This document shows positions 29,175 to 32,967 of a stretch of 64,000 nucleotides of DNA, in pieces. The position numbers were made by a program, and so were the translations under genes. Location of the stretch: assembly GCA_025351875.1 (NCBI GenBank), contig JANXVA010000180.1, forward strand, positions 16,517-80,516, read 5' to 3'. The DNA comes from Myxococcales bacterium. Its GTDB lineage: Bacteria > Myxococcota_A > Polyangia > Polyangiales > Polyangiaceae. Below the pieces are notes generated by a model. That model saw nothing but the letters and a program-made list of their open reading frames with translations, was not told the origin of the DNA and searched no databases. Position 1 is the stretch's first letter. Each line of letters opens with the position of its first letter.

Positions 29175-29212
29175 AAAAACGAAACGGGCTGACCGCTTTC
29201 GCGACCAGCCCG
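29175..29212 (-). terminator. Intrinsic terminator of the tRNA-Val transcript
   Basis: Minus strand CGGGCTGGTCGC-GAAA-GCGGTCAGCCCG followed by TTTCGTTTTT. Confidence 0.8.
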
Positions 29213-29235
29213 CCTACTCCGAAGTGCCTATTTTG

Positions 29236-29307
<72 letters not shown>

Positions 29308-29319
29308 AAAGGGCTCCGG

Positions 29320-29349
29320 GAAGTACCCCAAGCCCACGCCAGCTGTCAA
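29320..29349 (-). promoter_or_regulatory. Sigma-70 promoter for tRNA-Val
   Basis: TTGACA-N18-TACTTC on the minus strand, just upstream of the tRNA. Confidence 0.55.
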
Positions 29350-29451
29350 GGTAGGGTCTGCACGGACCTCCAAACGCCTGGGACCTCGCAAGTGTCACCG
29401 GCGGACCACGGGATCCTGTCACGGATGTCAGGGCTGCAATTCACAGCGCCC

Positions 29452-29700
29452 GGGGTAGGCAACCCGCCGCCTCCTGATTTCCGGCGGGTTCGAGCCGATT
29501 TGCCTGCCTCTCGGCGTGCCGCGCCCTCGAGCTCCGTCCTCGGCACGAGCGTTGCGACGGAGGAGCTCACTTCCTTCCGCTTCCCTTGGTTCGCGCAGGC
29601 TCTTGGCCCTCGCGTCTCGAGCGCGCGCCCGAGGTCGGCTCCGCATTCGGGCTCAGGTAGCCCGCGCGCGCGTCGTCCTCGGCGCGCGCTCTCTTTTTTT
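29452..29700 (+). ncRNA. Candidate structured sRNA or cis-regulatory leader
   Basis: Several strong stems, CCTCCT in a loop, GC-rich stem plus T7 tract just before the next gene; no credible CDS. Confidence 0.45.
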
Positions 29701-29726
29701 CGGCGATGATAGGAGCCCAAGGCGCC

Positions 29727-30461
29727 ATGACCTACCTCACCACGCGCAAGCCCCTCGTCGCGCTCCTCCCCCTCCTCGCCGCCGCGCTCACCGCCGGTTG
29801 CAGCGCCAGCGACAGCGGCTCCAAGCCCGGCGAGCTCGGCAACGGAGGGTTCTACTTTTCCTGCGACGACACCGTCGCGTGCAGCCGCTACACGAACGAC
29901 GCCTCGAAGTTTCCCGAGGCCGTCTCCGTCGGCTCCACGTTCGCCGTTCGCTTCGTGCCGAAGACCAACAGCGGGCTCGACATCCACTTCAACGAGTCGG
30001 CGGTCGATCGCGGCATCACCGTCAACGCGATCGGCGACGTCTACGTCTCGCGCGGCGCGAAGGGCCTCGCGGCCGTGAAGACCGGCTACGCGTCGCTCGC
30101 CGCTCGCGACGCCACCGGCGCCCTCGTCGACTACGTCGTGGTCCGTATCGCGAAGCCCGACGCGCTCGTCGTGTACTCCGCCGACGAAACGACCACGAGC
30201 ACGCCGCCGCACGTCGCCAGCATCACGCTCTCGGTCTCTGCGCACGACCGGAGGACGTACCGCGCGCTCGCGCAGCAGAACAGCGCCGACCTCGCCGGAA
30301 GTCTCCAGATCGAATGGACGTCGAGCAACCCGTCGGTCGCGGCGGTCGAGAGCACGACGGACGGCAAGGCGACCGTCGTTGCGAAGTCTGCCGGCACGGC
30401 GTCGCTCGTCGCGGTCGGTGGGACGTTCACGCAGAACATTCCGATCACGGTGTCGCAATGA
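29727..30461 (+). CDS. Lipoprotein with Ig-like (Big_2-type) C-terminal domain
   Basis: AGGAG SD; lipobox LTAGC; IEWTSSNPSVAAV..ATVVAKSAGTASL. Confidence 0.8.
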   Translation: MTYLTTRKPLVALLPLLAAALTAGCSASDSGSKPGELGNGGFYFSCDDTVACSRYTNDASKFPEAVSVGSTFAVRFVPKTNSGLDIHFNESAVDRGITVNAIGDVYVSRGAKGLAAVKTGYASLAARDATGALVDYVVVRIAKPDALVVYSADETTTSTPPHVASITLSVSAHDRRTYRALAQQNSADLAGSLQIEWTSSNPSVAAVESTTDGKATVVAKSAGTASLVAVGGTFTQNIPITVSQ

Positions 30462-30862
30462 GCGCCTGGTCTCGCGCGCGGCGTCTCGCCCTCCATTCGA
30501 CGTTCTCCGTGGCTGCAGTGGCGCTGGCGGGCTGCGGCGCGGAGTACGACCACACGGACATCGTCGGAGTCCACGCTCCGCCGAAGCCGCTCGACGGTCG
30601 CGTGAACTATGCACGCATCAACGTCTCCGTCGGCGCCATCGTCACGGCGCACATCGTCTCCTACGACGACGATCACAAGGAACTGGCTGCGGAGCTGCGC
30701 TCGAAGGACACGAATGTCGTCGAGGTCACCGGGGTCGTGACGCCGGGTGACTACGCCTTCCTCGGCCTGCGTCCCGGCCAGACCGAGGTGGAGGTGCGCG
30801 CCGATGGGCATCTCGTGCTGATCCTCACCGCCGTCGTGACCGACCAGCCGTCGCTCCCCTGA
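30458..30862 (+). CDS. Small Ig-like lipoprotein
   Basis: ATGA coupling; lipobox LAGC; SKDTNVVEV..GLRPGQTEVEV. Confidence 0.75.
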   Translation: MSAWSRARRLALHSTFSVAAVALAGCGAEYDHTDIVGVHAPPKPLDGRVNYARINVSVGAIVTAHIVSYDDDHKELAAELRSKDTNVVEVTGVVTPGDYAFLGLRPGQTEVEVRADGHLVLILTAVVTDQPSLP

Positions 30863-30882
30863 AGCTGGTATGACGCGAAGCG

Positions 30883-32967
30883 ATGGACAGTCGCTACGTG
30901 GACGCGGACGCCTCGCGCGCGGTCTCGGAATGTGCCGGCCGAGCTCCGCCCGTTGGCGAGCCTGTCGCGCTCCGCACGTACACGGCGCGTCTCCTCGGCG
31001 CTGACGACTCGCTCGTCCTCCACGGCGGAGGAAACACGAGCGTGAAGTCGGAGGCTCGGACGCTCTTCGGCGAGACAGTCGCCGTCATCCACGTGAAGGG
31101 CTCCGGCTGGGACCTCGCCACGATCGAGCCGCCGGGGCACCCCGCGGTCCGTATGGCCGCCCTGGAGCGCATGCTCTCGCTCCCCACGATGACCGACGAG
31201 CAGATGGTCAACGAGATGCGCCTCGCGCTCCTCGACGCCAACGCACCCACGCCGAGCGTCGAGACGCTACTCCATGCCGCGCTGCCGGCACGCTTCATCG
31301 ATCACACGCACGCGGATGCAATCCTCGCCGTCGCCGACCAGGAGCAGGGCGAGAGCATCTGCCGCGAGCTCTTCGGCGAACGCCTCCTCTGGGTGCCGTA
31401 CGTCATGCCGGGCTTCGGCCTCGCGAAGGCGTGCAAGAAGGCGTGGGACGAGGCGATCGGCGCAGGGCGCGCGCCCACGGTCATGGTGCTCGAGCGCCAC
31501 GGAGTCTTCACGTTCGGCGAGAGCGCGAAGGAGAGCTATGAGCGCATGATCGAGGCGGTGACGATCGCCGAGCGCTTCGCCGCCGATCGCATGGAGACCG
31601 CCAACGTGCTCGGCGGCACACCGGACGACCGGCTCGAGGCCGCCGTCGTCACGGTCGTGCGCGGTGCGCTCGCCAACGTGTCCGGCGAGCCGCCGGAGCG
31701 CGCGCCCATCGTCGCCGTGCGTGCGGGCGAATGGATCCTCGGGTTCCTCGAGCGCAAGGATGCGTACGAGCTCGTCCAGCGCGGCTGCGCCACGCCCGAT
31801 CACGTGATTCGGACGAAGCCGACAGCGCTGCTGATTCCGCACGTGGAGAGCGAGGAGCCGAACGCGCTCGCCGCGCGCATCGAGGGCGAGATCGCCGAGT
31901 ACGCGCGCCGCTACGATCGCTACTTCGAGAAGATGTGCGCGAAGAAGAACGTCACGCGCACGAAGCTCGATCCGTGGCCGCGCGTCATCCTCGTTCCTCG
32001 CGTCGGCATCCTCGCCGTCGGCAAGACCAAGAGAGACGCGGAGATCGCCGCCGACATCTACGAGCACACGATCCAGGTCATCACCGACGCCGAGGACGTC
32101 GGTCGCTACTCCCCGGTGAGCCTCGGCGACCTCTTCGACGTCGAGTACTGGAGCCTCGAGCAGGCCAAGATCAAGAAGGAGCCCGAGCTCCCGCTCGCCA
32201 AGCAGGTCGCGCTCGTCACCGGCGCGGCGTCCGGAATCGGTCGCGCGACGACCGCGCTCTTCATGGAGCTCGGCGCGCACGTCGTCGCCTGCGACCGCAA
32301 CGGGAACGCGCTCGACGCGATGGCCTCGGAGATTGGCGGCAAGAGGCGGCAGCAGCTCGTGACGTGCGTGACCGATGTCACGAACCGCGAGCAGGTCTCC
32401 CGCGCCTTCATGCTGGCCGCGCGGATGTTCGGCGGCGTCGACATCGTCGTCAGCAACGCCGGTGACGCGCCCGAGGGCCGGCTCGACTCCCCCGAGGGAG
32501 AGGAGGCGCTCCGTCGCTCGCTCGATACGAACCTCCTCGCTCACAACACCGTTGCCTCATGCGCCGTCGAGGCCATGCGGCGCGCCCGGCGTGGTGGGTG
32601 CTTGCTCTTCAACGCGAGCAAGAGCGCCTTCAATCCGGGACCGGGCTTCGGGCCCTACGCGGTCGCGAAGGCCGCGCTGGTCGCGCTCATGCGCCAGTAC
32701 GCGGTCGACCTCGGGCGCTTCGGGATCCGCGCGAACGCGGTGAACGCCGACCGGATCCGGACCGGCATCTTCTCGGGCGGCGTGCTCGAGTCGAGGGCTG
32801 CCGCGCGTGGTCTTTCCGTCGACGACTATTTTCGCTCGAATCTCCTCGGACGCGAGGTGACGGCGCACGACGTCGCTGCAGCGTTCGCGTATCTGGCCGA
32901 AGCGAGGGCGACGACCGGTTGCGTCATCACCGTCGACGGCGGGAACACCGCCGCATTTCCGCGTTGA
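30883..32967 (+). CDS. Bifunctional class II aldolase / short-chain dehydrogenase (RhaD-like fusion)
   Basis: GGGNTS, KGSG, PSVET.LH, DHTH, TPDH, EYWSLEQAK; TGAASGIG, YAVAK. Confidence 0.92.
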   Translation: MDSRYVDADASRAVSECAGRAPPVGEPVALRTYTARLLGADDSLVLHGGGNTSVKSEARTLFGETVAVIHVKGSGWDLATIEPPGHPAVRMAALERMLSLPTMTDEQMVNEMRLALLDANAPTPSVETLLHAALPARFIDHTHADAILAVADQEQGESICRELFGERLLWVPYVMPGFGLAKACKKAWDEAIGAGRAPTVMVLERHGVFTFGESAKESYERMIEAVTIAERFAADRMETANVLGGTPDDRLEAAVVTVVRGALANVSGEPPERAPIVAVRAGEWILGFLERKDAYELVQRGCATPDHVIRTKPTALLIPHVESEEPNALAARIEGEIAEYARRYDRYFEKMCAKKNVTRTKLDPWPRVILVPRVGILAVGKTKRDAEIAADIYEHTIQVITDAEDVGRYSPVSLGDLFDVEYWSLEQAKIKKEPELPLAKQVALVTGAASGIGRATTALFMELGAHVVACDRNGNALDAMASEIGGKRRQQLVTCVTDVTNREQVSRAFMLAARMFGGVDIVVSNAGDAPEGRLDSPEGEEALRRSLDTNLLAHNTVASCAVEAMRRARRGGCLLFNASKSAFNPGPGFGPYAVAKAALVALMRQYAVDLGRFGIRANAVNADRIRTGIFSGGVLESRAAARGLSVDDYFRSNLLGREVTAHDVAAAFAYLAEARATTGCVITVDGGNTAAFPR

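Follow-up and report, generated by a model that had tools for sequence, protein, structure and literature searches.

The stretch of DNA analysed here, referred to as the window (64,000 nucleotides with a G+C content of about 69%), comes from a 94-kb contig in a metagenome-assembled genome of 8.9 Mb (G000, 94.75% complete), and its host is an uncultured Labilithrix-like myxobacterium. Within the window a gap of 419 bp separates a tRNA-Val gene on the minus strand from a lipoprotein gene on the plus strand, and the subject of this work is that gap as a candidate control region, together with the RNA that may be transcribed from its 3' half. An initial annotation had placed a candidate undescribed structured RNA or attenuator between the tRNA-Val gene and a lipoprotein operon; the location is correct, with the amendment that the tRNA gene lies on the minus strand, so that the flanking genes are divergent.

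At least 12 genomes of the genus have tRNA-Val and the lipoprotein gene as neighbours, and conserved blocks recur in the intervening gap. Further orthologous loci were gathered by scanning genomes and metagenomes with an alignment of the lipoprotein, giving 31-33 distinct versions of the control region for comparison, one of the relatives being Labilithrix luteola DSM 27648, with its ortholog near 4.751 Mb of NZ_CP012333.1 (relatives' genomes and loci are given G and L numbers below). Alignments of the gap contain three conserved islands, namely 29344-49, 29393-29434 and a sigma-54 block, while the remainder of the gap is free-running.

The predicted sigma-54 promoter and its upstream site

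The sigma-54 block contains, at 29542-29555 on the plus strand, what both conservation and consensus match suggest to be a sigma-54 promoter, with a -24 element GGCACG (29542-47) and a -12 element TTGC (29552-55). The sequence at 29541-29556 reads CGGCACG-AGCG-TTGCG, in which the GG/GC spacing is exact and every position of the published consensus TGGCACG-N4-TTGC(T/A) (PMC7910581) is matched except the initial T and the final W. All 13 aligned genomes carry GGCA and GTTGCG unchanged, and the consensus CGGCACg..cGTTGCGA holds across 32 unique loci. The host genome carries rpoN, seen as one Sigma54_DBD gene, and its genes for bacterial enhancer-binding proteins (bEBPs), the activators of sigma-54, are represented by about 65 strong matches to Sigma54_activat. 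Judged from the spacing to the -12 C at 29555, transcription from this promoter would start at about 29567-29569.

Upstream of the promoter, a 40-bp conserved block at 29393-29434 is a candidate activator site (enhancer) for a bEBP. Distally it contains TGT...ACGG (29393-29411) and proximally the dyad CTGTCA-CGGA-TGTCAG (29416-29431), and 31 unique loci give the consensus tGT..ccgg..Ga..ACGg.g.ccTG.CA.ggATGTCAgGgc. Across loci the distance from this site to GGCA is 81-148 bp, and activator sites usually lie 80-150 bp upstream (PMC7910581). Eight length classes are seen (81, 92, 104, 113, 117, 125, 137 and 148 bp), and for these a Rayleigh-type statistic is highest at an 11-bp period (R = 0.82); p is about 0.002 against simulated random lengths and 0.006 once periods of 10-11.5 bp have been scanned. 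Given this periodicity of about 11 bp, insertions and deletions in the spacer appear to be accepted mainly in whole helical turns. Such phased spacing is the pattern expected if a bound activator faces the promoter across a DNA loop, and binding and looping are predicted from it. The steps of about 11 bp, seen over some 30 natural variants, form a clear evolutionary record of the phasing with the DNA helix that goes with enhancer looping.

A regulon search found the combination of activator site and promoter in single copy in the host genome. Contig C163 of the same genome has, near position 2142 on the plus strand, a sequence that partly resembles the activator site (TGACAGCGATGTCAGGGCC), with no sigma-54 pattern within 260 bp downstream. 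Between genomes the module tracks the lipoprotein gene and not the tRNA: L041 has no tRNA nearby, and at L033 and L060 the tRNA is in the other orientation. At L034 (contig 1041 of G013) the module of activator site, promoter and lipoprotein gene is found twice, on opposite strands and flanking a single tRNA-Val; one of these copies has the leader type of the host genome and the other a paralogous leader type. Regarding the identity of the activator, boxes of the GlrR type (TGTC-N10-GACA) are absent from 29300-29560 with up to one mismatch allowed, and the activator site does not match the Nla28 half-site CT(C/G)CG(C/G)AG (consensus from PMC7910581).

Between the activator site and the promoter lies a spacer (29435-29541) which, in alignments of the closest relatives, is not conserved, and the length of which varies between loci. 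This spacer holds the 5' stems to which the initial annotation had drawn attention: an outer stem of 10 bp including two G-U pairs (29452-61/29501-10), a perfect 9-bp stem with CCTCCT within its 12-nt loop (29461-69/29482-90) and the 5' arm of a perfect 7-bp stem (29532-38/29556-62), the loop of which is the promoter itself. All of the stems and hairpins that had been listed do exist, and minimum-free-energy folds reproduce most of them. Compared with 200 dinucleotide shuffles, the fold of 29452-29510 is moderately stable (z = -2.67, with 3/200 shuffles as good) and that of 29530-29564 is not unusual (z = -1.28). In the closest relatives (G001, L051 and L057), the lipoproteins of which are 83-91% identical to those of the host genome, the enhancer and promoter are near-identical, but the spacer is scrambled and the complementary 9-mers are gone; the spacer of L057 differs in length by about 20 bp. 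The outer and 9-bp stems, proposed as RNA structure, are hence lost in the nearest relatives, and the 7-bp stem, proposed as a further RNA element, brackets the promoter and is not conserved. Given that the predicted start at about 29567-29569 lies downstream, the CCTCCT loop, for which an anti-Shine-Dalgarno role in an RNA had been envisaged, and most of the GGAGGAG that might pair with it would fall outside the transcript. As this case shows, GC-rich stems that lie in the promoter spacer of a high-GC genome can mimic structured RNA.

The predicted leader RNA and the flanking genes

The transcript would open with a CU-rich 5' leader segment (CACTTCCTTC..GCTTCCCTTGG, 29567-29590 on the plus strand), delimited by conservation and folding. 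This segment is the most conserved of the transcribed stretches, keeps the same spacing to the promoter in most loci and is predicted by folding to be unpaired. It reads CACTTCCTTCCGCTTCCCTTGG in the host genome and elsewhere CACTTCCTTCTCGCTT(C/G)(C/G)CTTG or a repeated GCTT(C/G). When the 94 sigma-54-like pattern matches of the host genome are compared, the pyrimidine richness downstream of this promoter is the highest among them, and the leader motif is unique. A small leader hairpin is predicted by folding at 29592-29614 (plus strand), and G001, L050 and L051 have hairpins of differing sequence at that position.

The 3' half of the leader is dominated by a GC-rich main hairpin with a CCGAGG/CCUCGG core (29619-29691, plus strand; -55 kcal/mol), which contains the 6-bp hairpin 29648-64 and the hairpin 29666-89, and in the minimum-free-energy fold of which a long helix joins 29619-34 to 29674-91. 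The fold of 29616-29700 has z = -5.54 (0/200 shuffles) and that of the whole of 29567-29700 has z = -4.42, the 3' hairpin being the sole segment clearly beyond chance. An equivalent hairpin is found in 22/24 of the orthologous leaders examined, with energies of -24 to -58 kcal/mol, usually with the CCGAGG/CCUCGG core and 14-264 nt ahead of the start codon.

When whole near-clade leaders were aligned and folded by plain MAFFT/RNAalifold, the 3' arms were misaligned and only 9 pairs were obtained; alignments of the hairpin only were used instead. In these, the outer helix of the near clade is 94% paired over 11 sequences, as opposed to 28-60% when the partner columns are slid, and two pairs are changed on both sides (A-U/U-A/G-C and C-G/U-A). 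A covariance model of the outer helix (R1) recovers the near clade at E values of 1e-6 to 1e-15, while distant hairpins score at the level of GC-rich background and are not separable from it; for that reason its position and the CCGAGG/CCUCGG core are the grounds for treating the hairpin as homologous across clades.

In a distant clade, the group around G003 (L037, L039, L042, L066 and L071), the leaders are about 290 nt long and have 63 consensus pairs, 21 of them compensatory, with many pair exchanges of the type G-U/A-U/G-C that fit an RNA made from the plus strand. As candidates for an undescribed structured leader they surpass the version in the host genome. They share the motif GCGCGTCGCA(A/C)GCCGCGAA.AGCGGTA ahead of the start codon and have no Rfam match. 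Leaders of the paralogous type (L033, L060, the plus-strand copy of L034, and L073) have a long hairpin (GGCACCACCCCTCG...CGAGGGGCGGTGCC) with an apical palindrome TGACGTCA. Several loci also carry microsatellite-like, lineage-specific expansions that are pyrimidine-rich on the transcribed strand, of the forms (CCCT)n, (CTCTCG)n, (CGCTTCGTT)n and (CCTGCGCCG)3; they are located upstream of the activator site in L010 (G001) and in the leaders of the plus-strand copy of L034, of L043 (L. luteola) and of L056.

An Rfam scan of the region in the window returned only the tRNA, all other matches having E values of about 1 or higher and lying far below gathering scores, and a scan of the leaders or loci of six relatives likewise returned only tRNA and no leader match, in agreement with the initial annotation, which had recognised no known riboswitch. 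Nor does the element belong to a family of dispersed repeats in its own genome, where a search gave the locus itself and short GC-rich chance matches (E of at least 0.006, no longer than 31 nt). The proposal of an undescribed structured RNA can thus be kept for the 3' half, where the pyrimidine-rich stretch, the hairpins and the terminator-like end are likely part of a structured and conserved leader, the transcription of which is predicted, and is unsupported for the 5' stems, which belong to the non-conserved spacer. The hairpin may set mRNA stability or pausing. Together, the CU-rich 5' end and the leader hairpin are candidates for an uncatalogued cis-regulatory RNA, modestly interesting rather than surprising.

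The leader runs into a Shine-Dalgarno sequence AGGAG (29711-15) and the start codon ATG 29727 (29711-29729 in all, plus strand), which follows 26 nt past a run of T, as had been noted at the outset. From this ATG, in the host genome and in orthologs, a signal peptide and lipobox follow. Lipoprotein 1 (29727-30461, plus strand; 244 aa; lipobox LTAGC) has a weak C-terminal Ig-like (Big_2) domain, with Big_2 matches below the Pfam cut-off in 7/12 of its orthologs, and weak PDB matches to S-layer and Ig-like chains. Lipoprotein 2 (30458-30862, plus strand; 134 aa; lipobox LAGC), the ATG of which overlaps the stop codon of lipoprotein 1 (ATGA), is hidden inside a longer mechanical open reading frame (ORF) of the ORF list; by tblastn it directly follows lipoprotein 1 in nearly all loci. 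Twenty nt after lipoprotein 2 begins a fusion of a class II aldolase and a short-chain dehydrogenase (30883-32967, plus strand; Pfam Aldolase_II and adh_short). The order of the three genes is conserved in nearly all loci, no terminator-like site was found in 30300-31000, and the aldolase/dehydrogenase fusion is probably in the same operon as the lipoproteins.

On the other side of the gap, the tRNA-Val (GAC) gene (29235-29307, minus strand) is identified by ARAGORN and by Rfam tRNA (68 bits). Directly 3' of it, at 29182-29215 on the minus strand, is a terminator-like hairpin of 15 pairs followed by CGTTTTT. A putative sigma-70-type promoter for this gene (29320-29349, minus strand) consists of TTGACA (29349-29344), an 18-nt spacer and TACTTC (29325-29320); its function as the tRNA-Val promoter is suggested by the consensus. 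The plus-strand reading of its -35 hexamer, TGTCAA (29344-49), is the first of the conserved islands and is invariant in 13 genomes, and in distant relatives TTGACA is kept and the -10 hexamer still begins with TA (TAAACG).

Interpretation and rival explanations

With a probability of roughly three in four, the region is a divergent control region in which an enhancer-dependent sigma-54 promoter is followed by a structured leader, and is thus an ordinary kind of switch and not a new free-standing RNA. In this arrangement an activator of the bEBP class, encoded elsewhere, would bind at 29393-29434; the variable spacer, with the two 5' stems, would loop out; the activator would then open the sigma-54 promoter at 29542-29555; and transcription from about 29567 would provide the operon of lipoprotein 1, lipoprotein 2 and the aldolase/dehydrogenase fusion with a leader some 160 nt long. 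Comparison between loci shows conservation, at the level of sequence and predicted fold, of the promoter, the activator site, the phased spacing, the operon and the hairpin, and shows none for the 5' stems. On this interpretation, a regulatory logic of activator site, sigma-54 promoter and structured leader would be assigned to a conserved operon in a poorly studied myxobacterial lineage.

Several observations weigh against this interpretation. The 94-kb contig has no cognate activator gene, and in L. luteola the nearest activator gene is about 15 kb off, with none within about 15 kb. The pattern GGCAYG-N4-TTGC is not enriched genome-wide, with 42 found versus 56 expected, and a pattern match alone is therefore no proof; the case for the promoter rests instead on evolution having kept exactly the -24 and -12 elements. 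Both the start site and the dependence on sigma-54 are deduced from sequence. As for the leader, the interpretation offers no account of what the CU-rich 5' segment does, folding of the L. luteola leader (which is not among the 24) gives no strong hairpin, and covariation in the near clade is thin, given that only two pairs are double-changed and most stem positions are invariant.

The rival with the strongest claim is the attenuator envisaged in the initial annotation, whereby the partner of 29681-89 would be either the neighbouring 29666-74 or 29619-34, and the choice between termination at T7 and read-through would depend on a signal. What invites this explanation is the end of the leader in the host genome, where the hairpin 29666-74/29681-89 is followed by TCTC and T7, a site that is also found by the terminator scan, so that a strong hairpin stands directly against a terminator-like, lineage-specific U-tract of TC and T7 (29692-29700, plus strand). 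Just 2% of the 330 runs of at least six T in the 8.9 Mb (both strands) come after a hairpin at or below -25 kcal/mol, compared with 0.7% at random positions. Moreover, transcription of the lipoprotein gene must cross this site because there is no room for a promoter of its own, and a partial transcript, 29616-29676, folds 29621-28 with 29664-73, which would leave the last arm free and could serve as an antiterminator. Overall, the host genome has few canonical terminators in which a hairpin precedes a T-run. Two alternative structures do not, however, make a switch: both the local hairpin and the long helix abut the U-tract and, from the mechanism of intrinsic termination, both should be termination-competent, which leaves the two pairings of the 3' arm without the on and off states they had been given. 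The pairing in the partial transcript is a true alternative, though one limited to four near-identical sequences.

Comparison of the tails following the helix is also unfavourable to an attenuator. The TC and T7 of the host genome is weakened in its closest relatives, to TTTATTT in G001 and L051 and to TCTATTT in L050; G013b has a CT-rich tail with no long T-run, and G018, L053, L054 and G007 have no T-run, yet the helix is retained in every one of these loci. The middle GC tract which the local hairpin 29666-89 requires is missing in G013b, L054, L053 and L052. No ligand- or protein-binding fold was recognised and there was no Rfam match. Given that the T-run and the local hairpin are lineage-specific, being absent from most of the orthologs that keep the helix, a conserved terminator/antiterminator switch is unsupported, and an attenuator of this kind is considered improbable, if still the least improbable of the rivals. 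A lesser role, in which the hairpin and T7 cause partial premature termination in the lineage of the host genome as a lineage-specific addition, is put no higher and is suggested with the same reserve.

A different use of the same terminator-like end would be to release a trans-acting small RNA some 130 nt long (29567 to about 29700), the unpaired CU-rich 5' end of which would act in trans as an anti-Shine-Dalgarno-like seed or bind a protein, with the operon mRNA arising by read-through. Such an RNA would have its own promoter, no other transcribed segment is as conserved as its 5' end, its body has z = -4.4, and small RNAs driven by sigma-54 exist elsewhere (Qrr, GlmY). Were it correct, it would represent a dual-function riboregulator family specific to Labilithrix-like Polyangia and a sigma-54-driven regulatory RNA outside the groups known for such RNAs. 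This scenario is unlikely, and more so than attenuation, given that the element always lies directly before the lipoprotein operon, 14-264 nt from its start codon and with no other promoter, that the terminator-like tail is limited to the lineage of the host genome and that no small-RNA family of Rfam was matched.

The CU-rich 5' end could alternatively act in cis, by blocking translation of the lipoprotein gene through pairing with its Shine-Dalgarno region, as in the rpoS leader. In the host genome CCTTGG (29584-89) is complementary to CCAAGG (29717-22), L054 has an 8-bp match, and RNAalifold of the distant clade pairs CCUUCG with CGAAGG, with one compensatory change to CCUUGG/CCAAGG in L066. 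Nevertheless, pairing energies of leaders with their own Shine-Dalgarno regions (-11.3 kcal/mol) are no better than those with the regions of other orthologs (-12.4 kcal/mol), the mean z against shuffled leaders is +0.54, the longest exact match averages 4.77 for own and 4.82 for mismatched combinations, and the 6-bp match of the host genome is lost in G001, L050 and L051. Sequestration of the Shine-Dalgarno region was rejected on these grounds, energies and match lengths being no better than the ortholog or shuffled controls, and it is regarded as very unlikely. Least credible of all is the earlier suggestion of a GGA-rich RNA from the minus strand that binds CsrA. The minus strand of 29567-29590 does contain several GGA triplets; against this, no PF02599 match was found in the host genome (94.75% complete), the conserved promoter is directed along the plus strand, the hairpin is without a U-tail on the minus strand, and the G-U pairs in the conserved hairpins of the relatives, which point to a plus-strand RNA, become C-A mismatches on the minus strand. 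With no CsrA gene found, this candidate was rejected and is close to refuted.

Comparison with known systems

Intrinsic-terminator attenuators include the trp and pyr leaders and the expression platforms of riboswitches. The leader described here resembles them in having a GC-rich hairpin followed by a U-run between a predicted promoter and a start codon, and in having competing GC tracts that could re-pair. It differs from them in that no conserved antiterminator, leader peptide, aptamer or protein-binding fold was recognised here, and in what is conserved: the U-run and the local hairpin are lineage-specific, whereas the long helix is kept. Sigma-54-dependent small RNAs are exemplified by Qrr1-4 of Vibrio and GlmY of enterobacteria. 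Here the likeness lies in a sigma-54 promoter, a short structured transcript (predicted in the present case) and a conserved single-stranded segment at the 5' end or in a loop; the element differs from Qrr and GlmY in sharing no sequence or Rfam match with them, in occurring only as part of the leader of this one operon and in having a terminator-like end only in the lineage of the host genome.

The closest parallel is with the enhancer-dependent sigma-54 promoters, examples of which are those activated by NtrC at glnAp2 in enterobacteria and the targets of Nla28 and Nla6 in Myxococcus xanthus (PMC7910581). Unlike many of the M. xanthus sigma-54 promoters, which are intragenic (PMC7910581), the promoter predicted here is intergenic. 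It also stands apart from the Nla28 and GlrR-type systems, in that the sequence of its activator site matches neither and the activator gene is not adjacent. In its architecture, nonetheless, it is like the enhancer-dependent promoters: GG and GC are set at -24/-12 spacing in a sequence close to TGGCACG-N4-TTGC(T/A), a dyad-containing site lies 81-148 bp upstream with helix-phased spacing, and the genome carries rpoN together with many bEBP genes.

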